From the NCBI RefSeq assembly GCF_044647545.1, contig NZ_CP172818.1: a DNA stretch of 64,000 bases; one strand, 5' to 3'. Source of the stretch: Escherichia coli (GTDB lineage: Bacteria > Pseudomonadota > Gammaproteobacteria > Enterobacterales > Enterobacteriaceae). The notes beneath the pieces are model-generated. The model was not told where the DNA came from and did no database searches. It saw only the letters and a list, made by a program, of their open reading frames with translations. Positions 21,157 through 36,704 of this stretch are shown piece by piece (the first letter of the stretch is position 1; every line of letters starts with the position of its first letter). Made by a program: the position numbers and the translations under genes.

Positions 21157-21518
21157 GTTAGGCTGCTAACGGTTATCAAAATTTTATCAAAAAAAGTTAT
21201 CAAAACCCCTCGGTAGTTTTGGGGTAGGCTGGCCGGTCAGGTGGTAGTTCTACTACTAGTCTCCCACATAGATATTCCTTAGCTTTTTATTATTGCTGGC
21301 GGACGCTCGTTAATATTTAAGGTCTTCATTGATTAAGACATCCCCAAAGTTAGTTATGTATTCACTGTTATTAGGACAATTATGAATTACCACTCCTTAC
21401 ACCCGCTCAAATATTGTTAAATTGCCGGTTTTGTATCAACTACTCACCCGGGACTCGCCAGGGGACAGCCAACAGGCATTGGGTGCAATCACCTTAGCGT
21501 TCAGGTACATGCGGAATG

Positions 21519-21543
21519 TAAAAAAGGCCGCGAGCGCGGCCCC
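21519..21543 (-). terminator. rho-independent terminator downstream of ymfD
   Basis: Minus strand: GGCCGCGCTCGCGGCC hairpin followed by TTTTTT, 55 nt beyond the ymfD stop. Confidence 0.65.
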
Positions 21544-21596
21544 TTCACATACATCTTTAGTACTGAGACTGTTTAACCTAGGGAATTATTATCGTA

Positions 21597-22262
21597 TTAT
21601 ATTGCATTACAACTCCCAACAGTGACATATGAACTTCCTGCTTTACTCCACGACTTTAATATTTCAAGGCCATGTGAAGAACATATTTCTTGCACTGCGA
21701 GTTCATCGAGTAATCCATAGTAAGAAACACTTTTTGAATTTTTGTAAATGTATCCGTAAAGATGTTTTCTTCCTGTTTCGTATTTTTTGAAGTATGAGCT
21801 TTTATATTGATTTACAATAAGAGTCTCACCTCCTGATTTTAGTAATCTCTTGATGCTAAGAACTATTTTGTCGATTGTATCCCGACAAGGAACGGCAGAG
21901 AGAACATTAGAGCAAAGGATGAAATCGTAACCCCCAATTATTTTGTCGACATCCTCGAAAGCAACTGTATTTGCATTTTTATAATATCGTGGGACATAGT
22001 CAATAATTTTAGTTTTAATTCCTCTAATAATTTGCTCTCTTTCAAGTTGCCTTTTCGAGTCTAGAAAAGTAACTTCATCAAATTTACTGATTAATTCATC
22101 AGAATATCTAAGTTTTCCGCAGCCAAAATCAAGGGCGTGGCCATTTTTCTCAATGCTTCTAATATACTCGCAAAGATATCTAGAGGGCATCGTATGAGGT
22201 TTTGCTGCATTCTCTGAGCGAATATTAACTCCGTGCATATTATAGTTCAAAGCAAGTACCAT
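21597..22262 (-). CDS. ymfD: putative SAM-dependent methyltransferase (prophage cargo)
   Basis: 221-aa ORF; class I MTase motif I LDFGCGK; AT-rich codon usage; start abuts the ymfE stop. Confidence 0.75.
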   Translation of the reverse strand: MVLALNYNMHGVNIRSENAAKPHTMPSRYLCEYIRSIEKNGHALDFGCGKLRYSDELISKFDEVTFLDSKRQLEREQIIRGIKTKIIDYVPRYYKNANTVAFEDVDKIIGGYDFILCSNVLSAVPCRDTIDKIVLSIKRLLKSGGETLIVNQYKSSYFKKYETGRKHLYGYIYKNSKSVSYYGLLDELAVQEICSSHGLEILKSWSKAGSSYVTVGSCNAI

Positions 22263-22976
22263 TCAATTAATGTTATTTTTAGTGAAAAATTCTTTTATTT
22301 TATCGTCCGGGATTTTTCCGACTTGACTTTCAGTTCTGGGCTTAACTGTCAAAGCAAAGATAATACCACTCACTGAGAATGATAAAATTACAAAAAAGAA
22401 TAAAGACAGCAAAGAACCTTCAACATGAAAAATATCCATTTGTTTGCAAAAAAAGATTATTAGGAAGGAAATTAATGCAATTATCGAAAATTCAAAAAAT
22501 ATCCAAAAATAGTATACTTTATTCCAGAAGAGTTCAATATAATGTTTGTCTTCAATTTTTCTTACTTCAGGGTAATATAGATTGCTCATTACATTGTGAG
22601 CTTCATCTTTATTTAATTTTCTGTTGACTCCAGCTCTCCGTGATAACGGTTTTATAATTAGATGCTTATCCCAAAGATATCGCACCCGAAGTAGTTTGGC
22701 TGCATTGTTATGTAGGTCTAACGCACCGCTAATTAAATATGCAAAAATCGCAAAAGCACAAGGTAATATACCAAAAGATAGTGCCCAATTAATAAAGCTC
22801 TCATGATCTTTAATAGGTGGGACATACTTGGTTGGTAATGTTATTAAAGGGATGTATTCGTAAATAACTAGAAGTATGCAATATATTAGCGTATTTAAGA
22901 AAGTTGCTTTATGAAGTTTAGGCAACATTTCATTATAATTTTTGGGGGGTTCGAACATATTATTCACCTGAGTCAC
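22263..22976 (-). CDS. ymfE: multi-pass membrane protein (prophage cargo)
   Basis: 237-aa ORF with about 4 predicted hydrophobic helices; very AT-rich; first gene of a two-gene minus-strand operon with ymfD. Confidence 0.7.
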   Translation of the reverse strand: MTQVNNMFEPPKNYNEMLPKLHKATFLNTLIYCILLVIYEYIPLITLPTKYVPPIKDHESFINWALSFGILPCAFAIFAYLISGALDLHNNAAKLLRVRYLWDKHLIIKPLSRRAGVNRKLNKDEAHNVMSNLYYPEVRKIEDKHYIELFWNKVYYFWIFFEFSIIALISFLIIFFCKQMDIFHVEGSLLSLFFFVILSFSVSGIIFALTVKPRTESQVGKIPDDKIKEFFTKNNIN

Positions 22977-23162
22977 GCTTTAGGATAGTGTAATGGTAAT
23001 ATTTAATTAAGTGTCATTATATACTTTTCAGTAGGTTAGTTACAATTTTTTGTATCTGTTCAGGCTGACCTAGCTTCGCTGACAGACAATATTGTGATCA
23101 GTAGCACGTATCGAGGAGGAGTAGCGCTACAAATTTGACGCTGGGTGAGAATCTGAAATTGA

Positions 23163-23234
23163 TAGAAATGAAATAATGAAATAATGAAATGATGAAATGA
23201 TGAAATGATGAAATGATGAAATGATGAAATGATG
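23163..23234. repeat. tandem octamer repeat: (AAATAATG)x2 then (AAATGATG)x6
   Basis: Directly readable perfect 8-bp tandem array in the divergent intergenic region between ymfE and lit. Confidence 0.9.
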
Positions 23235-23424
23235 ACAGAGTGTCCAGTGGGCACGGATGGTGTCTTACGACATGCTTACCTTAATCGTTCCCAGTGTGCC
23301 TATAGCAGATATTCTAAACATGTCGATAATTCATTACGCATATAGTATCGAACATAGAAAAAACTGAAGATTCATCTTATTTTGTATATACTACCTAGCC
23401 CAACAATGTAGAGGTTAACGAAAA

Positions 23425-24318
23425 ATGCGCTCACCAATTTGTCATCTTTTCTCAGCAATTAATTCATCACCATTTAAGATTGCACCAGAGAAGGAGCAAG
23501 ATCTTAAAACGATAGTTGACGACAAAAAAATTATAATTTCAGTTGTGAGTGAACCTGGTTTTAATATCCGAGTCAGGAAGAATGAGAGTAATAATTCACA
23601 TGAAATAGTTCTAACAGTAGCTTCACTTGAATATATTTGGGCATTTTCCAATTTCTTTTGGGTTTTTACGCAAGAGTACTCCAAATCTCAGAAAAATAAT
23701 GATGAGCACTTTGATTTAACAGGAAAAAATAGGCTTAAAAAGTCTGATGAACTTCTTAAATGGGCAAGGAAAAACTTGCAAACAACAGGTTGCGAATCAT
23801 GGCCTAAAAAATGTCCCAAGCCAGAAGCATATTTACAAGGAAGCGAAGACTCACAAGTTGCTAGCGAGATATTTCTTTGTGCTATTGCTTGGATTCTTCA
23901 TCATGAAATAAGTCATGTTGTTTTACAGCATCCATTGGTCACTACAGCATTCTCCACTCAAGAGGAGCGTGAAGCAGATTCACATGCTACAAAATGGATA
24001 TTAGGCAACCTGTATGAATCCGCTCCTGAATTAAAGAAACGTGCACTTGGCATTGCTACGGCAGTGCTTTGTATACAAAGCTTAGAAGTTGAAAATTACT
24101 TCTGTTTACAAAATACACACCCAGCTGCATATGAGCGTATATATTCGAATATTTCATGCTACCCTGTCGGAAATGAAGAGTTGATTGAAGCTCTATGTAC
24201 AGTGATGCTTCAATATCTTTTCCATGGCAAAAATATCAATGTGAATCTAGATGGGGAGTCCTTTTCATCGATTTTAGGTGATCTTCTCTGTGATATTTCA
24301 CGTCTTACCAGTAACTGA
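23425..24318 (+). CDS. lit: Lit cell-death zinc metalloprotease (phage-exclusion protease targeting EF-Tu)
   Basis: 297-aa ORF with HEXXH motif in ILHHEISHVVLQH; AT-rich. Confidence 0.85.
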   Translation: MRSPICHLFSAINSSPFKIAPEKEQDLKTIVDDKKIIISVVSEPGFNIRVRKNESNNSHEIVLTVASLEYIWAFSNFFWVFTQEYSKSQKNNDEHFDLTGKNRLKKSDELLKWARKNLQTTGCESWPKKCPKPEAYLQGSEDSQVASEIFLCAIAWILHHEISHVVLQHPLVTTAFSTQEEREADSHATKWILGNLYESAPELKKRALGIATAVLCIQSLEVENYFCLQNTHPAAYERIYSNISCYPVGNEELIEALCTVMLQYLFHGKNINVNLDGESFSSILGDLLCDISRLTSN

Positions 24319-24408
24319 TATGGCTGTCCGCCGCTCGCTTAAAGTGGACTTTTTAGTTTTTATCATGTGCGGTGAGAAATTCAATGTGGCGTTGAGATGC
24401 TTAAAGGT

Positions 24409-25536
24409 TCACAACGCTACTTTGCTCCATCCTTTACCTCGATCATCATGATAACGATCGGTTTGTTGTTGTGTTTTATGACCAAGTAGTTTTTGTGTGT
24501 CTAACCCCTGTTCTTTATACAGACGTTCAGATAAAGACCTTTGCTCATGGAATGTCGCAGGTGAACCCTCTCCCCAGTCAATTCTTGCTAAATCTCTCGC
24601 TTTACTAAAATTCATCGTCAATGTATTGGCTTTAACCTGCGCTCCGCGCTCTGCTTGTGAAGTTGAACGAAAAAAATGCACTAAGTATGCACTGACTGCA
24701 TAGTCACGGCAGCGGGCTACTACATCGCGTAAACTCCAGTTAATCGCATTGAGGCGAAGAGAAAGAGGAATTGCGATTTTGCTCCCGGTCTTTTCCTGAA
24801 TGACATGAAGATGATCATCCCAAATATCGCTAAATTTCATACGCGAAATATCACCTAACCGCTGACCAGTAACCAGCGCTAACAGCATGGCATTTCCCAT
24901 GTAACGATGAGTAGCGTCTGCGATATCGAAGATTTTTTTCCATTCTTCAAGGCTCAGCCGTTGTCGGGTAATTTTTCTTCTTGGTTGTTTAGTGGCTAAT
25001 GCTGGGTTATAGCCAGGAGGTACTTCTCCGTAGTGCTGCGCCTCTTTGAAAACATCAATCAGGACGGAGCGAACTACTTGTGCCATTCTTGGCCGCCCAG
25101 CGGCGATATACTCATCAAGCAATTGTGCTATATCTCTGACATCAACGGCTGAGATCAACTTCATTCCTGCTCGTTCTCTGAGCAAGGATACTGGTTTAGC
25201 TTTTTGTTTATAGGTGTTGAGTCTTATATCACCACTTTTAAGCCTGTCATCCTGGATCGCTTGATAGCGATCTAACCAGGTTGACGTTGTGATAGCCTTT
25301 CCTTTGCTGGTTGCGATCCTGTCACTGATAGCCAGAATCTGCCGGGTTCTTTGTTCAGCCAGGCGAGTGTTGGCCTCAGTGGCAATAGCGATAGCTTCAG
25401 CTTCGTTTGTTCCCAAAGCATGGAATTTTCCTGTCACTGGATGCTTATACCGCCAATAGACTTTATTTACCTTCCTACTATAAAGCGGATATAAGTTAGG
25501 GACTGAAACATTATTCTTACGCGGTCTGGCTGCCAT
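24409..25536 (-). CDS. intE: tyrosine integrase
   Basis: 375-aa ORF; C-terminal catalytic region with R..HxxR..Y (LLGHKTQQQTDRYHDD). Confidence 0.9.
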   Translation of the reverse strand: MAARPRKNNVSVPNLYPLYSRKVNKVYWRYKHPVTGKFHALGTNEAEAIAIATEANTRLAEQRTRQILAISDRIATSKGKAITTSTWLDRYQAIQDDRLKSGDIRLNTYKQKAKPVSLLRERAGMKLISAVDVRDIAQLLDEYIAAGRPRMAQVVRSVLIDVFKEAQHYGEVPPGYNPALATKQPRRKITRQRLSLEEWKKIFDIADATHRYMGNAMLLALVTGQRLGDISRMKFSDIWDDHLHVIQEKTGSKIAIPLSLRLNAINWSLRDVVARCRDYAVSAYLVHFFRSTSQAERGAQVKANTLTMNFSKARDLARIDWGEGSPATFHEQRSLSERLYKEQGLDTQKLLGHKTQQQTDRYHDDRGKGWSKVAL

Positions 25537-25762
25537 TACTCAAAATCCGTTGCAAAAGTAATGAGTCATTTTTCTTGATTACAGGTGTTACCAACTCCCC
25601 AACTAACTCGGCGTCCTCACGCACTCGCCATAACCGGCCTTGTTTCATGGCCGGTGGACAAAATAAATTCTGCTTAGCATAACGACGCAATGTGGACACA
25701 CTTGGAGGATTACTTCTGTATTTTTCAGCAGCCCATTCTTCAAGAGTTAACATTTGAAGCAT
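25517..25762 (-). CDS. xisE: excisionase (AlpA/Xis-like HTH)
   Basis: 81-aa ORF overlapping the int start; typical int-xis arrangement. Confidence 0.8.
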   Translation of the reverse strand: MLQMLTLEEWAAEKYRSNPPSVSTLRRYAKQNLFCPPAMKQGRLWRVREDAELVGELVTPVIKKNDSLLLQRILSNGSQTA

Positions 25763-26228
25763 ATGCGATCACCTTATTACTACACTAACTGCTTAGTCTC
25801 ATCATATCGACCCTGCAAGGCCGATTAGTTTCTCCACAAAACAGAGAAGAACACCTGCGGCGGCAGCCGCCCGGATGGATTGGGTTATGAGCCCGTCGTC
25901 CGGTGATGCTCTTCTCTGTTTTGTAAAAAGGACGGTACCAGCCTGAAGCAAGGGTACAAACTGGTACCGCCAGGACTACACACAGCATAAAGTTGTGGTG
26001 CCGGGTGCCTCCCGGTGCCTGGCGAAGGTTGCACACCAGACGGGTGGGTATCCACAGAAGGTCGACTGTCAGCCTCAACCTTAACCCGCGTGCGCTGAGC
26101 CGCATTCACCACAACGCTAAGGATTCTCTTTGGTTGAAAATACTTAGCTGTTATGTGCCTGTCTTTTCACCACTTCAGGCTCGGTGGTATGCTGGAGTTC
26201 TCACACAGCCAGCAAGCAAGGAAACTTA

Positions 26229-26570
26229 ATGAACCAGTTTTATGTTCACGTTCGTCTATTTGAAGACACAGCCGAACAGACCAAAAAATTTGAAGAATTA
26301 ATGCTTAACTTTCTGTACCAGAAAACAGTTAAAGAGTCTGACGATAGCTGCTGCAGACTGATTCCAGAGGGATATATCCTCAAAAGTACAATGAACTGCC
26401 AACAAATCCTTGATCAAACATTTTCAATTGCTAACAGTGCCGGTGTTGACGCAAATATATTTGTCTGTAAATTTGAACAAAGCGCATGCTTACTTCCGTC
26501 TGCTTCCTTAGTTGGTAACGATTTCGTTCATTACGATCTTACGCCTAAGCCCATCAAGCTCGATTCTTAA
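26229..26570 (+). CDS. ymfI: prophage protein of unknown function
   Basis: Start MNQFYVHVRLF gives 113 aa; no recognisable motif. Confidence 0.55.
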   Translation: MNQFYVHVRLFEDTAEQTKKFEELMLNFLYQKTVKESDDSCCRLIPEGYILKSTMNCQQILDQTFSIANSAGVDANIFVCKFEQSACLLPSASLVGNDFVHYDLTPKPIKLDS

Positions 26571-26816
26571 AGCCTTAACCATTGTGTCGTGATAAACACG
26601 GCTCACCTTCTCTCCATTGCATGGCAGAGGGGTGAGTGTGTTAGCCATGAAATTCATGAACTCGGTTCGACCAGGGGCTTGCGCCCCGCAAGTCTTTAAT
26701 GCCTGTTTTGCTAACAAAATGCGGGCCTCAGTGCCTGCATTTGGCTCTATCTGCTGCAAACGTTTAGCGTCTTCCAGCAACAATGCGATCACATGCTTCA
26801 AATTCTGCTCATTCAT
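26508..26816 (-). CDS. ymfJ: prophage protein of unknown function
   Basis: 102-aa ORF downstream of a strong promoter-like element. Confidence 0.6.
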   Translation of the reverse strand: MNEQNLKHVIALLLEDAKRLQQIEPNAGTEARILLAKQALKTCGAQAPGRTEFMNFMANTLTPLPCNGEKVSRVYHDTMVKALRIELDGLRRKIVMNEIVTN

Positions 26817-26922
26817 CTATTCTCTCCACTGAAATCATCCGCTAACGAATCATCCCGGTCTTCGTACGTACCGGGCGGGCTACTTCGTGGGCGTCCTGCC
26901 TGTTTGTTGTTTCTCTTGGGTA

Positions 26923-26951
26923 CATTATGTATCTCAAAGGTACATTGTCAA
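26923..26951 (-). promoter_or_regulatory. sigma70-like promoter for ymfJ with overlapping GTACC operator half-sites
   Basis: Minus strand TTGACA, 17-nt spacer, ATAATG; tGTACC motifs overlap both hexamers. Confidence 0.5.
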
Positions 26952-26952
26952 G

Positions 26953-26978
26953 TATAAAAAAACCTGCCGAAGCAGGTT
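26953..26978 (-). terminator. rho-independent terminator of cohE
   Basis: Minus strand AACCTGC-ttcg-GCAGGTT followed by TTTTTTT, 13 nt after the cohE stop. Confidence 0.75.
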
Positions 26979-26990
26979 CATAAACATTGA

Positions 26991-27665
26991 TTAGGCTTTG
27001 ATTTTGTATCTTCTTGGTTTTCCTGAGAAAATCACAGTACCAATTATAGAGCAATTACCGTTGATCTTAATGTAAGGCTCAGGCCAGTTTGGGTTTAACG
27101 CTTTGAGATAACGCTGTGTCCCATCTTCTATCAACCTTTTGAAGGTGGTTTCACCTGTATCGTGCATCAATGCAATAACGTCGTCACCGTGGCAGGCAGG
27201 TACTTCAGGATCGACAAAAATCATGTCTCCCGGGCGGTACTCATCAATCATTGAATCACCTATTACCCGCAAGATATAAGTCATTTCCCCACAGGGTACA
27301 GGGCAGGGATACGTTTCTGCTGTGCTCAAATCAACCTCAGAATATCCAACTTCTTTCCATGCTCCGGCCTGTACCCATGATATGACAGGGACTAATGTGA
27401 TTTGTTTATTAGTGATTGAAACATCAGGTTTTTTTGTGATGTTCGTTGTCTGGTGTTCTTGATCGAGCCATCCTACAGGCAGGTCGAAACATTTTTCGAT
27501 GTGTCGTGCCATGCTGTCACCGATATTTTTAGTAGCACCATCTCCCATAAACCTGCTGGTCTGGGTTGGCTCGCGATCAATCATAGTGGCAAAGGAAGAA
27601 TTCCCGCCAACACCATCTCTCAGTTTTCTGGCGTTAGACCGCCGGATGTCATGGATTGTTTTCAT
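26991..27665 (-). CDS. cohE: CI-like prophage repressor (HTH plus LexA-type S24 peptidase domain)
   Basis: 224-aa ORF; C-terminal VIGDSMIDEYRPGDMIFVDPE self-cleavage domain; divergent from cro-like gene. Confidence 0.85.
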   Translation of the reverse strand: MKTIHDIRRSNARKLRDGVGGNSSFATMIDREPTQTSRFMGDGATKNIGDSMARHIEKCFDLPVGWLDQEHQTTNITKKPDVSITNKQITLVPVISWVQAGAWKEVGYSEVDLSTAETYPCPVPCGEMTYILRVIGDSMIDEYRPGDMIFVDPEVPACHGDDVIALMHDTGETTFKRLIEDGTQRYLKALNPNWPEPYIKINGNCSIIGTVIFSGKPRRYKIKA

Positions 27666-27680
27666 AACGAAATTAAAACC

Positions 27681-27701
27681 CTTGTACCGTTAAGGTACAA
27701 G
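27681..27701. promoter_or_regulatory. operator palindrome CTTGTACC-gttaa-GGTACAAG between cohE and croE
   Basis: Perfect 8-bp inverted repeat with 5-bp spacer; related half-sites ATGTACACC/GGTACAT at 27731..27750. Confidence 0.6.
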
Positions 27702-27705
27702 TATC

Positions 27706-27734
27706 TTGAAGGTTCATTTCAATCATGTAATATG
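27706..27734 (+). promoter_or_regulatory. candidate croE promoter
   Basis: TTGAAG, 16-17 nt spacer, TAATAT, then GGAGG SD at 27741..27745. Confidence 0.4.
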
Positions 27735-27755
27735 TACACCGGAGGTACATATTGT

Positions 27756-27956
27756 ATGAAAGCGTATTGGGACTCTTTAACCAAAGAACAGCAGGGCGAG
27801 TTGGCCGGAAAAGTTGGCTCAACACCTGGCTACTTACGGCTGGTTTTCAATGGCTATAAAAAAGCCAGTTTTGTGCTGGCTAAAAAACTTGAGCAATACA
27901 CATCAGGTGCAATTACGAAATCTGACTTAAGACCGGATATCTATCCGAAAGATTAG
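27756..27956 (+). CDS. croE: Cro-like regulator
   Basis: ATG 27756 (MKAYWDSLTKEQQ) gives 66 aa; GGAGG 11 nt upstream; divergent from cohE. Confidence 0.75.
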   Translation: MKAYWDSLTKEQQGELAGKVGSTPGYLRLVFNGYKKASFVLAKKLEQYTSGAITKSDLRPDIYPKD

Positions 27957-27987
27957 CAGAACACTTTCAATTTTTAACCACAGAACG

Positions 27988-28554
27988 ATGAGGCTAATCG
28001 TGGGTAAGCATCACTGGAAAATAGAAAAACAGCCTGAGTGGTACGTGAAAGCTGTCAGAAAAACTATCGCGGCGTTGCCGAGTGGTTACGCTGAAGCGGC
28101 TGACTGGCTCGATGTAACAGAAAACGCTTTATTCAACCGCCTTCGTGCAGATGGCGATCAGATTTTCCCGCTGGGATGGGCAATGGTTTTACAGCGTGCT
28201 GGTGGCACTCACTTCATTGCTGATGCTGTGGCGCAGTCTGCAAATGGCGTCTTTGTGTCTCTTCCTGACGTCGAGGATGTGGACAACGCCGATATTAACC
28301 AGCGTCTGCTGGAAGTCATTGAACAGATCGGCAGTTATTCAAAACAGATTCGTTCAGCAATCGAAGACGGTGTAGTGGAACCGCATGAGAAGACAGCAAT
28401 TAACGACGAGCTGTATCTCTCAATTTCGAAGCTGCAGGAGCATGCAGCACTTGTCTACAAAATTTTTTGCATTTCAGAAAGTAACGCCCGCGAGTGTGCA
28501 GCTCCGGGCGTCGTGGCGTCGATTGCTTCTGGTTGTGGAGAAACTAACGCATGA
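27988..28554 (+). CDS. ymfL: prophage regulatory protein (CII-like family)
   Basis: 188-aa ORF immediately downstream of croE, early-region position. Confidence 0.6.
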
Positions 28555-28889
28555 ACAGTTTAACAACACACTACCGTCGCTCGCAACTGATTGCACTTCC
28601 TGTACCGGGTGGAAAAGCGAAGGTGGAGTATTGCTATGCAGTGAATGTACCAGGTGACAGGGAAATTGTAACCCACAGCTTTGCAGAGTGGGCTGTGGGT
28701 GATTTCAACCGGCAGAAGGAGACAGTCCTTTGCGACAAGTTAACCGCTGGTTCAAAGATCACTACGGAGTGCCCGTCAGAGTCATTCGTTGGGAGCCGGA
28801 AACACAACGGGTTATCTACCTCCGTGAAGGCTATGAACATGAATGCTTCAGTCCGGTCGAACAGTTTCGTCGTAAATTCAGGGAAATAG
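28551..28889 (+). CDS. ymfM: prophage protein of unknown function
   Basis: 112-aa ORF overlapping the ymfL stop. Confidence 0.55.
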
Positions 28890-28898
28890 AGGTCGGTC

Positions 28899-30266
28899 AT
28901 GAGCACTAAATTAACCGGCTATGTATGGGATGGTTGCGCTGCATCAGGCATGAAGTTATCCAGCGTGGCAATTATGGCCCGCCTGGCTGATTTCAGTAAT
29001 GACGAAGGTGTGTGCTGGCCATCAATTGAAACCATTGCCCGTCAGATTGGCGCGGGGATGAGTACCGTCAGAACGGCTATCGCACGGCTGGAAGCAGAAG
29101 GCTGGTTAACGCGTAAGGCGCGTCGCCAGGGTGATGGTTCATCACCCCACTGTGCGGTGGTGGATGAATATCACGAGCACGCCACCGATGCGCTTTATAC
29201 CACGATGCTTACCGGGATGGGGGCGCGACGTCAGCCACTGATGTGGGCCATCACCACCGCCGGGTACAACATTGAGGGGCCGTGCTACGACAAGCGGCGG
29301 GAAGTTATCGAGATGCTCAACGGTTCGGTACCCAACGATGAACTGTTCGGGATCATCTATACCGTTGACGAAGGCGATGACTGGACCGACCCGCAGGTGC
29401 TGGAAAAAGCCAACCCGAATATTGGCGTGTCGGTTTATCGCGAATTTTTGTTAAGTCAGCAGCAGCGTGCGAAAAATAACGCCCGTCTGGCAAACGTCTT
29501 TAAAACAAAACACCTCAATATCTGGGTGTCGGCGCGTTCGGCGTATTTCAACCTGGTGAGCTGGCAGAGCTGCGAGGATAAATCACTGACCCTTGAGCAG
29601 TTCGAGGGGCAGCCGTGCATTCTGGCCTTTGACCTGGCGCGTAAGCTGGATATGAACAGCATGGCGCGACTTTATACCCGCGAGATTGACGGTAAAACGC
29701 ATTACTACAGTGTGGCCCCGCGTTTCTGGGTACCGTATGACACGGTGTACAGCGTCGAGAAAAATGAAGATCGCCGGACAGCCGAACGCTTTCAGAAATG
29801 GGTGGAAATGGGCGTTCTGACTGTTACCGCTGGTGCGGAGGTGGATTATCGCTACATCCTCGAGGAGGCCAAAGCGGCGAACAAAATCAGCCCGGTCAGT
29901 GAGTCACCCATCGACCCCTTCGGGGCGACCGGGCTGTCGCATGACCTTGCTGATGAAGACCTGAACCCCATCACCATCATTCAGAACTACACCAACATGT
30001 CCGATCCGATGAAAGAGCTGGAAGCGGCGATTGAATCGGGGCGCTTTCATCATGACGGCAATCCCATCATGACCTGGTGTATCGGCAACGTGGTCGGCAA
30101 AACCATTCCGGGTAACGATGATGTGGTGAAGCCTGTCAAGGAGCAGGCGGAAAACAAAATCGATGGTGCGGTTGCACTGATTATGGCGATTGGCAGAGCA
30201 ATGCTGTACGAGAAAGAAGACACGCTGTCTGACCACATTGAGTCCTATGGGATCCGCTCGCTTTAA
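28899..30266 (+). CDS. oweE: fusion ORF: replication-initiator-like winged-helix N-terminus joined to terminase large-subunit C-terminal region
   Basis: 455-aa ORF; N-terminal roughly 90 aa resemble phage replication initiators, the remainder resembles a terminase large subunit C-terminal domain. Confidence 0.65.
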
Positions 30267-30277
30267 CTGAGGTAATT

Positions 30278-30445
30278 ATGATCATGCTGATTCTCCGCCT
30301 CTGGTGGGCGGCGGTGCTTTTGCTGGCGTATGGTGCCGCTCATTTATCCCCCGGGGGTTTTGTTCCCGGGGCGTTGTGCCTGTTCTGGTCGTTGCTGGTG
30401 GCGCGAATCTGTTCGACACAGTCGTCTGTCGGCGGAGGTAAATAG
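30278..30445 (+). CDS. ymfR: small hydrophobic membrane peptide (55 aa)
   Basis: ATG 30278 to TAG 30445, below the ORF-track cut-off; two hydrophobic stretches ([33 protein letters not shown]). Confidence 0.4.
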
Positions 30446-30651
30446 TGTTCTTTTCGGGATTATTTCAACGAAAAAGCGACGCACCGGTGACCACGCCAGC
30501 AGAGCTGGCGGATGCCATCGGGTTGTCCTACGACACCTATACCGGAAAGCAGATCAGCAGCCAGCGGGCCATGCGACTGACGGCGGTTTTTTCCTGTGTC
30601 AGGGTGCTGGCAGAGTCGGTCGGGATGTTGCCTGCAATCTGTATCACCTGA
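30445..30651 (+). pseudogene. beeE: portal protein N-terminal fragment
   Basis: 68-aa ORF with portal-like N-terminus; downstream region has no continuous frame. Confidence 0.45.
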
Positions 30652-30841
30652 ACGGCAGCCTGAAACAGAGAGCCACGGCGAGCGTCTGCATAGCTGATCT
30701 CCACGCATCCCAATGGCTATATGACGCCGCAGGAGTTCTGGGAGCTGGTGGTCACCTGTCTGTGCCTGCGGGAAACTTTTACGCCTACAAAGTGAAAGCA
30801 TTTGGCGAAGTGGCTGAAACTGCTGCCCGTCGATCCCGGCT

Positions 30842-31633
30842 GTGTGGTATATGCGCTGGGAAGGTGTCAGCGATGGCCTGAAGGTGACCGCCGGGAGTGT
30901 TATTCAGCGCGATGACCTGGTGCAGTACACGACAACTGACGATGCAACCAGCTCCGGTGGTGTCCTGCGCGTGCCGATCACTTGCTCAACTACAGGCGCG
31001 GTCGGTAACGCTGACGACGGTACGGCATTAATCCTGGTCACGCCGGTGAATGGTCTGCCGTCTTCCGGTGTTGCAGATACCCTGACTGGCGGATTTGATA
31101 CTGAAGAGCTGGAAACGTGGCGCGCCCGCGTCATTGAGCGGTATTACTGGACGCCTCAGGGCGGGGCTGACGGGGACTATGTCGTCTGGGCTAAAGAAGT
31201 GTCAGGCATTACCCGTGCATGGACATACCGCCACTGGATGGGAACGGGGACTGTCGGTGTGATGATTGCCAGCAGTGACCTGATTAATCCCATTCCGGAA
31301 GAATCAACGGAAACGGCGGCAAGACAACACATTGAGCCACTGGCCCCGGTGGCAGGCTCTGATTTGTATGTATTCAGGCCGGTGGCGCATAAAGTGGATT
31401 TTCATATCCGCGTGACGCCGGACACACCGGAAATACGGGCTGCCATCACCGCGGAGTTGCGTTCGTTCCTGCTGCGTGATGGTTATCCGCAGGGAGAACT
31501 GAAGGTATCGCGTATCAGTGAGGCGATTTCCGGTGCGAACGGGGAATACAGCCATCAGTTGCTTGCACCGGCAGACAATATCTCCATTGCAAAAAATGAA
31601 CTGGCGGTTCTGGGGACGATTTCATGGACGTGA
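30842..31633 (+). CDS. jayE: baseplate J-like protein (possibly truncated)
   Basis: 263-aa ORF resembling the C-terminal portion of Mu gp47/P2 J baseplate proteins; precedes gp48-like gene. Confidence 0.6.
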
Positions 31634-32208
31634 CAAACGATGATTACATCCGCCTGTTATCGGCACTGTTGCCGCCCGGTCCTGCATGGTCAGCCAGCGA
31701 TCCGGCGATTGCCGGTGCGGCACCTTCATTAACCCGCGTTCATCAGCGTGCGGATGCCCTGATGCGGGAGCTGGATCCGCGCACCACCACTGAACTGATA
31801 AACCGCTGGGAGCGTCTGTGCGGTCTGCCGGATGAATGTATTCCCGCAGGGACACAGACCCTTCGCCAGCGTCAGCAACGGCTGGATGCGAAGGTTAATC
31901 TGGCGGGCGGCATCAATGAGGATTTTTACCTTGCACAGCTTGCTGCCCTGGGCAGACCAGACGCCACTATCACGCGATACGATAAAAGCACGTTCACCTG
32001 CTCATCGGCCTGTACTGACGCAGTGAATGCGCCGGAATGGCGGTATTACTGGCAGGTCAACATGCCAGCCGCCACCAACACCACCTGGATGACATGTGGC
32101 GATCCCTGTGATTCCGCACTGCGTATCTGGGGCGACACCGTTGTCGAGTGCGTGCTTAACAAACTCTGCCCTTCGCATACCTACGTAATTTTTAAATATC
32201 CGGAGTAA
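31624..32208 (+). CDS. ymfQ: tail protein (P2 I / Mu gp48-like)
   Basis: 194-aa ORF overlapping the jayE end and followed by the tail-fibre gene. Confidence 0.6.
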
Positions 32209-32211
32209 TCC

Positions 32212-32841
32212 ATGCATCGTATAGACACGAAAACCGCGCAGAAGGATAAGTTCGGCGCGGGTAAGAACGGTTTTACCCGTGGTAACCCCCAGACCGGCAC
32301 ACCTGCCACCGATCTGGATGATGACTACTTTGACATGTTGCAGGAAGAACTTTGTAGCGTGGTGGAGGCCTCCGGTGCCAGCCTGGAGAAAGGGCGGCAT
32401 GACCAGATGCTTACCGCACTTCGTGCGCTGCTGTTAAGCCGCAAGAATCCGTTTGGCGATATCAAATCGGATGGCACTGTGCAAACGGCTCTCGAAAACC
32501 TTAGTTTAGGAGAAGGAGCAAAACTCAATGCAGCAACGGCTACATTAGGACGCACCGGTTTCATAGCTATACCGGTTATGATTGGTGGTATTGAGCAATC
32601 AGTAATCATTCAGTGGGGGTGGAATGCCGCAAAAGCATCTGCCTCTGGGGGGGATGGAAATACAGTTGTATTCCCGGTTGCGTTTAATAATGCCTGTGTT
32701 GCCGTTGTTGCAAATTATGACAATGTCAGCGCACCTATCAATGCAGTGGCAACGGGGGGATATACAACCACTTCGTTTTTATTACGGTGCGCAGCTCAAA
32801 CGGGTAGTTATTACTATAACTGGATTGCTATTGGGTATTAA
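32212..32841 (+). CDS. stfP: side tail fibre protein (constant part plus currently expressed variable part)
   Basis: 209-aa ORF; Gly/Ala/Thr-rich fibre-like C-terminus; crossover site lies inside the ORF at 32489..32514. Confidence 0.7.
   Translation: MHRIDTKTAQKDKFGAGKNGFTRGNPQTGTPATDLDDDYFDMLQEELCSVVEASGASLEKGRHDQMLTALRALLLSRKNPFGDIKSDGTVQTALENLSLGEGAKLNAATATLGRTGFIAIPVMIGGIEQSVIIQWGWNAAKASASGGDGNTVVFPVAFNNACVAVVANYDNVSAPINAVATGGYTTTSFLLRCAAQTGSYYYNWIAIGY
32489..32514 (+). other. Gin/Hin/Pin-type 26-bp recombination site (left)
   Basis: CTCTCGAAAACC-TT-AGTTTAGGAGAA fits the half-site pattern TTnTCnnAAACC / GGTTTnnGAGAA. Confidence 0.7.
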
Positions 32842-32842
32842 G

Positions 32843-33319
32843 ATGAAAATATACTGTTGCTTAAATACCGTTGGTTTTTTTATGGATGGCTGTGGCGTCA
32901 TTCCGCCAGATTCTAAAGAAATAACGGCAGAACACTGGCAGTCATTATTAAAATCTCAAGCTGAAGGAGGCGTGATCGATTTTTCTGTTTTTCCTCCTTC
33001 TATTAAAGAGGTTATCCGTACTCATGATGATGAAGTCGCAGATGCGAACTTTCAAAAGCAGATGCTTATCTCTGATGCAACTGATTTTATCAATAGCAGA
33101 CAGTGGCAGGGTAAGGCTGCATTGGGAAGACTTAAAGAAGATGAGCTGAAACAATCTGATTTGTGGGCTGGATTATCTGGACGCACTGGCGCTGGTCGAT
33201 ACCGCCAGTGCGCCGGATCTGAATGGCCTACGCCTCCGGCAGTTCAGGCCAGTAAATATCCGGTACAGTGCTGGTATCCGTTGCCATCACCGCGTCAATG
33301 TAATCCAGCACGGCGTTAA
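32843..33319 (+). CDS. tfaP: tail fibre assembly protein
   Basis: ATG 32843 (MKIYCC) 2 nt after stfP; WPTPP motif near the C-terminus; the frame stays open to 33319 (158 aa) and overlaps convergent tfaE, so the true stop is uncertain. Confidence 0.55.
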   Translation: MKIYCCLNTVGFFMDGCGVIPPDSKEITAEHWQSLLKSQAEGGVIDFSVFPPSIKEVIRTHDDEVADANFQKQMLISDATDFINSRQWQGKAALGRLKEDELKQSDLWAGLSGRTGAGRYRQCAGSEWPTPPAVQASKYPVQCWYPLPSPRQCNPARR

Positions 33320-33830
33320 GTCGGGTGTTTTCTGTCTGCGTCAGCTTCCTCCCGGCCTGCAATTTCAGTTGAATCAGACTAATTGAAGCCATTGCAGTAT
33401 CAATCAGTGACTGGCGCTGTGCTTCTGCCGCTTCTATTGCGGCACCGTATTGTGCCTCGGTATCGGTTACCCATTTCTCACCATCCCATTTATCGTATGG
33501 TGTTAACGGAGCGATAGTGGTCATATTTTCAGGGTAATCCCCTGGCGCTGTGATTTCTTTTGGTTCTCCCGTTTCGGTGCTATAAACAATTTCACCGCGA
33601 TGGTCTGGCACATATTTCCACGAGTTCAAATCCGTTGAGCGGCAAATTGCATAACCCGTTTTATGTGTACCAGGTGCATCTAAACAAGAACATGCCGGGA
33701 TACCGACACCGACAGCAAGATATTCGGTTGATGTTGAGATATATTCCTGTGTCCCATTATCATAGTTATAAACGGTAATATCCCCTGCCTTTACCGCGAT
33801 CAGCGCATCATTTAATACAGCTCCACCCAT
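33228..33830 (-). CDS. tfaE: tail fibre assembly protein (alternate orientation)
   Basis: 200-aa ORF ending in the canonical Tfa motif DIYWPELPEA. Confidence 0.75.
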   Translation of the reverse strand: MGGAVLNDALIAVKAGDITVYNYDNGTQEYISTSTEYLAVGVGIPACSCLDAPGTHKTGYAICRSTDLNSWKYVPDHRGEIVYSTETGEPKEITAPGDYPENMTTIAPLTPYDKWDGEKWVTDTEAQYGAAIEAAEAQRQSLIDTAMASISLIQLKLQAGRKLTQTENTRLNAVLDYIDAVMATDTSTVPDIYWPELPEA

Positions 33831-34390
33831 TATGCAGCCCTCACGATATAATTAAATGAAATATTTCGTGGACGTGATTCGTTACCGAATTTATCTGAAC
33901 CATCAGTATTTCTCGCTGAATATGTTTGGAGGATTGTCCCTGATGATGGATTCGCATTATATTCATTTGTTCCTGCTGGATAGTATGACATTGCACTATT
34001 GTCATCTTTGAAAACAGCAGACATCAATCCATCACCACCACTTCCGTAAGCAGTTGTAAGAAATGACGGTGATCGAAAGAAAGACTATTTTGTGCCGAAA
34101 GTAAGGGAACGACCAGAATCTACCCCGCGCCCATCATCCCAGCCACGAATAAACTCACCACGTAAATCAGGCAATTTATTTGTCGGGTAAGCCTTCGCCA
34201 GTTTTGGATATTCAACGGCAGAAAAAGCCGCACCGTTGCATTTCAGCCAGCCAGTAGGCGGTGTGGCTGAAGGCCACGGAACAGGCACACCAACGGGTAA
34301 TGCCGAACCTTCTCCCAAACCAAGGTTTATGAAAATGCGGAATAAGCGGCAAATGGCATCATTCCTGCTTTTGTCAGGGAGAGCTACCAT
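33830..34390 (-). pseudogene. stfE: alternate tail-fibre variable segment with in-frame TAG
   Basis: Two same-frame ORFs (34085..34390 and 33830..34027) separated by an amber codon at 34085..34087; N-terminal part carries a tail-collar-like motif (PVGVPVPWPSATPPTGWLKCNG...LPDLRGEFIRGWDDGRG). Confidence 0.6.
34308..34333 (-). other. Gin/Hin/Pin-type 26-bp recombination site (right, inverted)
   Basis: Minus strand TTTTCATAAACC-TT-GGTTTGGGAGAA; same TT core as the left site; adjacent to pin. Confidence 0.7.
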
Positions 34391-34941
34391 GCTTATTGGC
34401 TATGTATGTGTGTCAACAAATGACCGAAACACAAATCTACAGCGTAATGCGCTGAACTGTGCAGGATGCGACTCATTTTTGAAGACAAGATAAGCGGTAC
34501 AAAGTCTGAAAGGCCGGGACTGAAAAAACTGCTCAGGACATTATCGGCAGGTGACACGCTGGTGGTCTGGAAACTGGACCGGCTGGGGCGTAGTATGCGG
34601 CATCTGGTCATTCTGGTTGAGGAGTTGCGCGAACGTGGCGTTAATTTTCGCAGCCTAACAGATGCTATTGATATCAGCACATTCGATGGGGCGTTTTTCT
34701 TTATGTGATGGGGGCCTTGGCTGAAATTGAGCGTGAACTGATTGTTGAACGAACAAAAGCTGGACTGGAAACTGCTCGTGCACAGGGACGAATTGGTGGA
34801 CGTCGTCCCAAACTTACACCAGAACAATGGGCACAAGCTGGACGATTAATTGCAGCAGGAACTCCTCGCCAGAAGGTGGCGATTATCTATGATGTTGGTG
34901 TGTCAACTTTGTATAAGAGGTTTCCTGCAGGGGATAAATAA
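34389..34941 (+). pseudogene. pinE: serine invertase Pin disrupted by two frameshifts
   Basis: Resolvase/invertase sequence spread over three frames: 34389..34493 (MLIGYVCVSTNDRNTNLQRNALNCAGC), 34466..34708 (GDTLVVWKLDRLGRSM) and 34705..34941 (C-terminal HTH); total span 553 bp is two bases short of a 555-bp intact frame. Confidence 0.7.
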
Positions 34942-35047
34942 AGTTAAAGACACTTTGTGTACAAAAGAAAGTAAAACAACAGCAACTTGTTGCAATTTTA
35001 TCAATAAAAGTAGTATTGTCGTGAAAAATTGATTAAAGATTAATATT

Positions 35048-35881
35048 ATGCATGTTTTTGATAATAATGGAATTGAACTGAAAGCTGAGTGTTCGATAGG
35101 TGAAGAGGATGGTGTTTATGGTCTAATCCTTGAGTCGTGGGGGCCGGGTGACAGAAACAAAGATTACAATATCGCTCTTGATTATATCATTGAACGGTTG
35201 GTTGATTCTGGTGTATCCCAAGTCGTAGTATATCTGGCGTCATCATCAGTCAGAAAACATATGCATTCTTTGGATGAAAGAAAAATCCATCCTGGTGAAT
35301 ATTTTACTTTGATTGGTAATAGCCCCCGCGATATACGCTTGAAGATGTGTGGTTATCAGGCTTATTTTAGTCGTACGGGGAGAAAGGAAATTCCTTCCGG
35401 CAATAGAACGAAACGAATATTGATAAATGTTCCAGGTATTTATAGTGACAGTTTTTGGGCGTCTATAATACGTGGAGAACTATCAGAGCTTTCACAGCCT
35501 ACAGATGATGAATCGCTTCTGAATATGAGGGTTAGTAAATTAATTAAGAAAACGTTGAGTCAACCCGAGGGCTCCAGGAAACCAGTTGAGGTAGAAAGAC
35601 TACAAAAAGTTTATGTCCGAGACCCGATGGTAAAAGCTTGGATTTTACAGCAAAGTAAAGGTATATGTGAAAACTGTGGTAAAAATGCTCCGTTTTATTT
35701 AAATGATGGAAACCCATATTTGGAAGTACATCATGTAATTCCCCTGTCTTCAGGTGGTGCTGATACAACAGATAACTGTGTTGCCCTTTGTCCGAATTGC
35801 CATAGAGAATTGCACTATAGTAAAAATGCAAAAGAACTAATCGAGATGCTTTACGTTAATATAAACCGATTACAGAAATAA
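35048..35881 (+). CDS. mcrA: HNH endonuclease McrA (restriction of modified DNA)
   Basis: 277-aa ORF; C-terminal HNH motif HHVIPLSSGGADTTDNCVALCPNCHRELH; AT-rich. Confidence 0.85.
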   Translation: MHVFDNNGIELKAECSIGEEDGVYGLILESWGPGDRNKDYNIALDYIIERLVDSGVSQVVVYLASSSVRKHMHSLDERKIHPGEYFTLIGNSPRDIRLKMCGYQAYFSRTGRKEIPSGNRTKRILINVPGIYSDSFWASIIRGELSELSQPTDDESLLNMRVSKLIKKTLSQPEGSRKPVEVERLQKVYVRDPMVKAWILQQSKGICENCGKNAPFYLNDGNPYLEVHHVIPLSSGGADTTDNCVALCPNCHRELHYSKNAKELIEMLYVNINRLQK

Positions 35882-36117
35882 AATTATTTATTAAAGTCAC
35901 ATTTAAGACGTAATACCCTACAGGGTAAAAATTTTCTCTGATCTTAACTTCTGCAAATGTTAACTGCTATTTTTATGCTAAAAATGGTTATCAAAACTCA
36001 AAAACACATGTTTATAATCAATGAGTTATAGAAATGCTAAGGGCTAATGAGTTATATGCAAATTAGTAAAATTATGTTGCTATGTCAGATAGTTACGATT
36101 TAGTCATCTAACTAATG

Positions 36118-36278
36118 TACGCCATATGGGCTGGACTGAAGCCGCAGACTTGATTGTTAAAGGTATGGAAGGCGCAATCAACGCCAAGACTGTAACCTAT
36201 GACTTCGAACGTCTGATGGAAGGCGCTAAACTGCTGAAATGTTCAGAGTTTGGTGACGCGATCATCAAGAATATGTAA
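36118..36278 (+). pseudogene. icdC: icd 3' fragment (last ~53 codons) left at attR
   Basis: Sequence appears identical to icd 20943..21103 but has no upstream coding continuation. Confidence 0.8.
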
Positions 36279-36329
36279 TTACTACATGTGTTAAATATTG
36301 TAACGGGCGTATAACACGCCCGTTGTTTT
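36118..36329 (+). repeat. attR-side copy of the 212-bp direct duplication
   Basis: Same sequence as 20943..21154, including the terminator hairpin. Confidence 0.85.
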
Positions 36330-36380
36330 ATTTATGTGGGTATTATTAATAGCACATTGAGCATATTTATATGAAGCCCA

Positions 36381-36704
36381 TTACTTGAGCCCATATGGGC
36401 ATATTTTTATAATGCAACTATTATGCAAACATTTATTTGTTATTTTGCTTTCTCCTGGAGGACACTCTTGACTGCTTTTGAGTAAACTCCATAAATCCTT
36501 GTTGAATGGTGCGATGTTATAAATAGTAATAGGATATTCTTTATCCTTAAGGATAATACCAGATTTAACCGGTGTAAATATCCTGCCAGGAGGAAGAAAT
36601 ATAGTGGATTGATACCAGATGATCATTTTCATATCACCCCATATGGCTGAAAAAGATATGCCGCATGTAGGTTGAATTACCGTGTCAATTACTATCCACT
36701 TCAT
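36381..36704 (-). CDS. iraM: anti-adaptor protein IraM (RssB inhibitor)
   Basis: 107-aa ORF in a strongly AT-rich islet with a long AT-rich upstream region. Confidence 0.75.

Follow-up and report, generated by a model that had tools for sequence, protein, structure and literature searches.

Why does a tail-fibre reading frame in an e14-type prophage of Escherichia coli (contig NZ_CP172818.1) meet an amber codon and then stay open for a further long stretch? The stretch of DNA analysed here (64,000 nucleotides, the window) carries this frame on its minus strand, with the TAG at 34087..34085 in the fibre frame. The first-pass annotation read the TAG as a nonsense lesion in the alternate, non-expressed copy of the fibre tip, and connected it with the broken invertase beside it. 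Our analysis addresses what the lesion is, where the damaged cassette came from and whether the damage has to do with its silence. The lesion is very probably a compensated double frameshift in a silent P2-like cassette of the e14 invertible segment, and it belongs to general prophage decay rather than to decay specific to the silent copy.

The fibre segment lies in the invertible region of an e14-type prophage

From potA to nhaB the window and E. coli K-12 are colinear, with about 98% identity, and the interrupted frame lies in an e14-type defective prophage at icd, within a Pin-invertible tail-fibre segment. The gene order is that of e14: a ymfN-type fused ORF, ymfR, portal and baseplate remnants, ymfQ, stfP/ycfK, tfaP, a tfaE-type chaperone, a stfE-type tip, pin, mcrA and an icd' remnant. 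The features that define the segment are as follows.

32212..32841, plus strand: stfP/ycfK, the currently expressed orientation; 209 aa, open, with a gp53-like C-terminal domain
32489..32514, plus strand: left crossover site (pixL-type), inside stfP/ycfK; core TT at 32501-32502; G-to-A at 32503 and 32508 relative to K-12
33228..33830, minus strand: tfaE-type tail-fibre assembly chaperone, intact, 200 aa, PF02413 at E = 4e-32; part of the putatively imported cassette, with the last few codons e14-type
33830..34324, minus strand: silent alternate fibre C-terminal segment (stfE / Sv'-type), from the crossover-site codon CTT to TAA; disrupted by a +1/-1 frameshift pair
34310..34335, plus strand: right crossover site (pixR-type), TTCTCCCAAACCAAGGTTTATGAAAA; core AA at 34322-34323
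35048..35881: mcrA

The crossover sites were located by pattern search; a generic inverted-repeat search missed both because the left site has diverged. The 16-bp repeat of the right site, CCTTCTCCCAAACCAA, is the repeat reported for K-12 (PMC12529663). The left site reads TTAGTTTAGGAGAAGG here and TTGGTTTGGGAGAAGG in K-12, and both G-to-A changes fall in the 16-bp inverted repeat. One of these changes adjoins the core dinucleotide, and the LGLGEG of StfP has become LSLGEG. An inverted pair of crossover sites, exact on the right and recognisable with two changes on the left, bounds the segment. In the fibre frame the two sites each encode N-L-(G/S)-L-G-E-G. An inversion would consequently fuse the N-terminus of stfP, in frame, with the silent tip, which makes the minus-strand frame followed here the one that matters biologically.

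Outside the segment lies a constant N-terminal fibre part, and inside it are two opposed tip-plus-chaperone cassettes, one on the plus strand (stfP and tfaP) and one on the minus strand (the stfE-type tip with the tfaE-type chaperone). The adjoining serine invertase is represented only by a pin pseudogene, and the segment was assembled in a single orientation. The earlier identification of the segment as the alternate, currently unexpressed fibre C-terminal cassette of an e14-type invertible segment is thus correct.

The P segment of K-12 e14 (stfP/ycfK, tfaP, tfaE, stfE, pinE) has the same icd site, gene order and pin-proximal crossover sequence, and its fibre genes are divided in the same way, with one constant N-terminal part and two opposed cassettes of tip plus chaperone. 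This 1,797-bp segment is inverted by PinE, PinQ or PinR (PMC12529663). In K-12, stfE is open and encodes 178 aa with another distal tip, and pinE is intact. In contrast, the tip and chaperone in the window are a different allele (at least 14% diverged) with a frameshift pair, and the damage extends to a broken pin, two substitutions in pixL and a frameshifted tfaP.

In the Mu G segment (S/U, S'/U') and the P1 C segment, alternative fibre tips are inverted by Gin and Cin for host-range switching. The logic of these segments is the same, with alternative tips placed beside a Din-family serine invertase, and the same fibre-tip family occurs in P1-like, lambdoid and P2-like phages. The Mu and P1 segments are functional in viable phages, whereas the e14 prophage here is defective and all components are damaged except stfP and one chaperone.

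The fibre frame continues beyond the TAG

Translation of 34390..33830 on the minus strand gives, in a single frame, 101 sense codons, the TAG, 84 sense codons and a TAA at 33832..33830; the 101-codon frame starts with an ATG at 34390. The frame had been described as running about 80 codons from the crossover site to the TAG and 85 more to 33830. Counted from the core at 34322-34323, the first distance is 78 fibre-frame codons, and the second is 84 sense codons plus the stop, in agreement with that description. A tail-collar-like motif had also been noticed before the stop, and the Pfam search finds it as a domain.

34146..34289, minus strand: Phage Tail Collar domain (PF07484), residues 34-81 of the 101-aa upstream piece, E = 1.4e-15

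The score of this domain is 57.4 bits against a gathering cut-off of 24, which assigns the tip to the collar-type family. The 84-codon frame beyond the TAG exceeds what chance would give: when the 252-nt stretch was shuffled 20,000 times, only 0.27% of the shuffles remained open, and a length of 84 codons is reached by only 3.2% of the stop-to-stop intervals in the window. The DNA after the TAG is 100% identical to the 3' end of intact fibre genes elsewhere. No uninterrupted frame crosses the whole tip, which carries a +1/-1 pair with the TAG between. The silent tip is a pseudogene of the collar-type fibre-tip family and not a working member of it.

A further lesion lies on the other side of the crossover site. 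A 1-nt deletion near 34338 throws the K-12-type stfE start (ATG at 34359..34357) out of frame and leads it into a TAA at 34329..34327. As a consequence of this deletion, the upstream ATG at 34390 is in frame with the fibre (34327..34390). The deletion changes the short N-terminal part that makes StfE2 in K-12 after inversion.

Intact copies of the tip and chaperone are carried by P2-like prophages

The silent tip and its chaperone together form one block of nearly perfect similarity to P2-like prophages.

33243..34326, minus strand: putatively imported cassette; 99.6% identity to the tip and chaperone of the fibre in P2-like E. coli prophages

Over this block 1081 of 1085 positions are identical, and the differences are two substitutions at its very edge (33246 and 33261) and two gaps. 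The right end of the block is the crossover site and the left end lies in the last codons of the chaperone gene, where the sequence switches from P2-like to e14-type. From 33262 to 34326, two indels are the sole differences from the intact gene. The gene used for this comparison encodes a 513-aa P2-like prophage fibre (L003, 4770..6311), and the silent segment is identical to its 3' 495 nt apart from the two indels. The window follows the intact gene from the crossover-site sequence CCTTGGTTTGGGAGAAGG to past the stop, save for these two single-base changes.

When the tip only was searched, 44 complete E. coli genomes matched at 99.4% identity, and all of them carry the intact version. Gene context was opened for two of the 44, FDAARGOS_497 and ECONIH1. 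In both genomes the matching DNA forms the 3' end of a fibre gene of 513 aa that is annotated without any flag, and the chaperone gene comes next. The pair belongs to a complete P2-like tail module, which also has genes for sheath, tube, tape measure and baseplate V, W, J and I. The P2-like fibre (H-type) and chaperone (G-type) of these genomes, WP_022645430 and WP_022645431, share the 1081/1085 nt with the window from the LGLGEG-coding sequence to the chaperone end. In the P2-like prophages the tip is fixed as the 3' end of the 513-aa gene in a complete tail module, without an invertase, and is intact. In contrast, the e14 copy is a detached silent cassette with two indels.

A pattern search for carriers, which accepted all four combinations of the two indels, matched three IMG/VR viral contigs and two metagenome contigs, all intact, and found no match in species-representative genomes. 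Neither a copy with a single indel nor a second copy with both was present among the 44 E. coli genomes, the three viral contigs and the two metagenome contigs. None of 5,426 complete E. coli genomes has the same cassette beside pin, the best match being the K-12-type e14 at 89% identity. Exact-sequence look-ups with the 101-aa fragment and with the hybrid chaperone returned no record.

A +1/-1 frameshift pair surrounds the TAG

The two indels lie on either side of the TAG, in the following order on the minus strand.

34103..34104, minus strand: +1 insertion; TT in the window (CCCTTAC), a single T in intact copies (CCCTAC); the frame shifts here
34056..34102, minus strand: out-of-frame stretch of 47 nt, read as TFGTK*SFFRSPSFL; the homologous peptide LSAQNSLSFDHRHFL (HxH motif) is in the window's +1 frame
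34085..34087, minus strand: TAG, a stop hidden in the intact frame inside AAT AGT (Asn-Ser), as the last base of the first codon and the first two of the second
34055..34056, minus strand: -1 deletion; a single C in the window at 34056 (TTACAAC), CC in intact copies (TTACCAAC); the original frame is restored

Codons and peptides over this region compare as follows.

Intact frame: GGT CGT TCC CTA CTT TCG GCA CAA AAT AGT CTT TCT TTC GAT CAC CGT CAT TTC TTA CCA ACT
Intact peptide: G R S L L S A Q N S L S F D H R H F L P T
Window frame: GGT CGT TCC CTT ACT TTC GGC ACA AAA TAG TCT ... CTT ACA ACT
Window peptide: G R S L T F G T K * S F F R S P S F L T T

The indels are 47 bases apart and 16 codons are misread between them. 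The insertion is 17 nt upstream of the TAG, which sits six codons past it, and the deletion is 29 nt downstream. Exactly between both indels, the window's +1 frame gives LLSAQNSLSFDHRHFL. The reading frame is open after the TAG because the downstream deletion restores it. Judged from the alignment with the intact copies, the TAG arises from this +1/-1 pair, which exposes a hidden stop, and not from a mutated sense codon.

The bases of the TAG are unchanged in the intact copies and are split there over two codons, so there is no ancestral codon at 34085..34087. The homologue alignment proposed to identify such a codon finds only the end of an AAT and the start of an AGT. The silent fibre does contain an inactivating lesion, as first annotated, but the lesion is not a nonsense mutation, since the TAG is exposed by the +1 change and the frame is restored by the -1 change.

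Homologues read through the position of the TAG

K-12 StfE, which is open over 178 aa, reads GRSILSIQGYATEDHAHGLPS across the TAG position, and its distal tip differs. The repaired tip (164 aa) aligns without a break, over its residues 8-162, with the solved short tail fibre PDB 9cuy, and it matches T4 gp37 and gp12 at the collar and at the C-terminal NIAFNYIVR motif. At least 80% of its length is covered by each of 404 records in the phage collection, and the tip is in one piece in 25 of the 25 records listed; the matching phage records include the lambdoid HK106, the P2-like pro483 and P1-like phages. On the comparison with these homologues, the intact state is the ancestral one.

The collar domain and the C-terminal NI(A/S)FNYIVR align with tips of the T4 gp37 / gp12 type (PDB 2xgf, 1ocy and 5iv5; short tail fibre 9cuy), but this similarity is distant only (E = 1e-17 to 1e-6) and the middle of the tip is unrelated. 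A fibre that naturally ends at the TAG, followed by a separate downstream gene, had been put forward as the scenario that would overturn the first reading. It is excluded, since the 513-aa fibres, K-12 StfE, 9cuy and the phage records all read through the position.

Damage to neighbouring genes does not track the silent orientation

Two neighbouring genes of the segment are also damaged.

32843..33319, plus strand: tfaP, the expressed-side chaperone; +1 at 33165 and -1 at 33220, with 18 codons out of frame
34389..34941, plus strand: pin invertase remnant; -1 at 34472, +1 near 34683, -2 near 34700, R8C and other private substitutions

The indels in pin were counted against both the K-12 and the BS-04 pinE, and R8C adjoins the catalytic Ser10 motif. 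The closest pinE among the 5,426 genomes is 94.3% identical, and that of BS-04 is 94% identical. With three frameshift events and R8C in pin, the neighbouring invertase is indeed broken. In tfaP, the two indels are 55 nt apart. The native stop of tfaP has been overwritten where the cassette ends in the tfaP/tfaE overlap, which leaves a 24-codon extension.

The first-pass annotation had explained the lesion as decay of the non-expressed copy alongside the broken invertase. The lesion and the broken pin stand, but the tie to the silent orientation does not. On the expressed side tfaP is frameshifted and stfP is open; on the silent side the chaperone gene is intact. The damage therefore does not track the silent orientation and is part of general prophage-remnant decay. 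Like its K-12 counterpart, the e14 here lacks terminase, portal and baseplate genes in intact form, which leaves neither orientation of use to a virion. The ymfR and portal remnant (30296..30817) shows about 16 small deletions or insertions relative to K-12 and is far more decayed than its K-12 counterpart.

In K-12 the e14 P segment is inverted by each of PinQ, PinR and PinE, which gives rise to the chimeras StfE2 and StfP2 and thereby affects the adsorption of phages (PMC12529663). A broken local pin would thus not by itself lock the segment, and Pin paralogues acting in trans would lie outside the window. The tie of the lesion to the silent copy is weak because tfaP is also damaged, because e14 is a remnant and because inversion occurs in trans in K-12 (PMC12529663).

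Alternative explanations for the frameshift pair

The interior of the cassette has no substitution and two indels in 1,065 nt, 47 nt apart, against about 10 substitutions per indel elsewhere in e14. That independent neutral indels should come first and so close is improbable (roughly 0.01 x 0.09, a rough estimate). In addition, tfaP has a second +1/-1 pair with a spacing of 55 nt, and in K-12 a toxic or costly effect has been reported for StfP2 and StfE2, the products of inversion (PMC12529663). These observations would suit an origin of both indels in one event, by error-prone repair or a slippage tract at import, or a selected loss of a costly chimeric fibre. We nevertheless consider such an origin unlikely. 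No templating repeat or hairpin was found, a single locus is the whole sample, and the second indel has no benefit, as the TAG lies between the two. Templating of the indels by a hairpin or quasi-palindrome was rejected, since the DNA folds no better than shuffles and forms the same stem, equally well, in both alleles. Slightly less likely again is the broader proposal that the cassette pair and the tfaP pair are non-independent, both being products of one error-prone repair tract at import or of selection against a chimeric fibre that Pin could switch in trans.

An artefact of sequencing or assembly, in which two short homopolymers of an intact cassette were miscalled, appears improbable. It would account for the change of run length at both sites (T/TT and CC/C), for the identity of the remaining cassette to the intact copies and for a pair that is private to the window sequence. 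However, no coding indel relative to K-12 was detected over about 35 kb of housekeeping genes, including pepT, phoPQ, purB, mnmA, icd, bluF, pdeG, minCDE, umuDC and others. All the coding indels relative to K-12 are in e14 genes (ymfH, ymfL, ymfR, the portal remnant, tfaP, stfE, pin and icd'), and the others are intergenic. The confinement of indels to e14 genes and intergenic DNA indicates relaxed selection on a prophage remnant, not random base-calling error. Moreover, the runs are just 1-2 nt long, which is atypical for homopolymer error, and the adjoining pin and tfaP carry further lesions and private substitutions.

A single-base amber mutation of a sense codon in the silent fibre would also break an otherwise continuous frame, as the TAG does. 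This explanation has very little left to recommend it, because the same TAG bases are present in every intact copy, spanning AAT AGT, and only the +1 upstream and the -1 downstream differ. The 16 codons round the TAG have no similarity to homologues in frame and match perfectly in the +1 frame, and no homologue was found with a sense codon one substitution away from the TAG. Programmed recoding, by frameshifting or amber read-through to a functional variant tip, agrees with the restored frame after the TAG but is next to negligible, as the arrangement is absent from 49 near-identical copies and from more distant homologues, the out-of-frame stretch replaces a conserved HxH-containing segment, the region has no RNA family or structure, and the segment has no constant fibre part in its present orientation.

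The search for RNA families over 31500..36500 gave nothing at the fibre lesion and only a weak tpke11 match near icd'. This sRNA match is located at 36283..36353, just past the icd' remnant, and scores 26.4 bits against an Rfam gathering score of 43.

Origin of the cassette and consequences of the lesion

Fibre tips are exchanged modularly among P2, Mu, P1 and lambdoid phages. Divergence from K-12 across the prophage is mosaic: 21250..28250 is identical bar one 300-bp patch, 28250..34750 is diverged, and 34750..36000, comprising the 3' third of pin and mcrA, is identical again. The tip and chaperone block, at least 14% diverged from K-12, is essentially identical to P2-like prophages. Among the 5,426 complete E. 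coli genomes, no other one has the cassette in an e14 context, so the e14 cassette as it was before the lesion is not represented there.

For the compensated double frameshift, the following course of events may be proposed. The P2-like tip and chaperone cassette would have entered e14 by homologous recombination, the most likely route, with two conserved stretches as the probable sites of exchange, the LGLGEG-coding crossover sequence and the 3' end of the chaperone gene. The direction of transfer, from P2-like prophage to e14, is suggested by where the intact copies occur. After import, two short runs would then have changed in length, from T to TT at 34104/34103 and from CC to C at 34056. 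Of these changes, the first exposes the TAG six codons on, and the second restores the frame 47 nt on. After inversion, the fibre would stop 78 codons past the crossover, without the HxH-containing stretch and the whole distal tip.

The K-12 e14 segment has been reported as a recombinase-switched anti-phage device, in which inversion by PinQ, PinR and PinE gives StfP2 and StfE2 (PMC12529663). With a truncated StfP2-type chimera, a dead local invertase and a mutated crossover site, this anti-phage switch is probably lost or altered in the source strain.

The correct annotation of the locus is a compensated double frameshift in a fibre-tip pseudogene, neither an amber mutation nor two genes. Beyond annotation its significance is small, as it is an ordinary pseudogene in the ordinary decay of a phage remnant. 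It is, however, a clean case of a fibre-tip cassette common to a P2-like prophage and a lambdoid remnant at about 100% identity. The one oddity is the presence of two clustered indels without substitutions in the cassette interior (33262 to 34326).

Two other features were observed in the same prophage. Inside pin (34389..36000), the 5' two-thirds are frameshifted and 6-12% diverged from every pinE found, and the 3' third together with mcrA is 100% identical to K-12, with a sharp boundary between the two. In ymfH, a hyperdivergent patch of 300 bp (25800..26130) carries about 35 differences and two 1-nt insertions; the rest of the surrounding stretch of about 7 kb is 100% identical to K-12 e14. 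This patch overlaps a sub-threshold Rfam match to the STnc100 sRNA (25922..26137, minus strand; 39.5 bits against a gathering score of 47).
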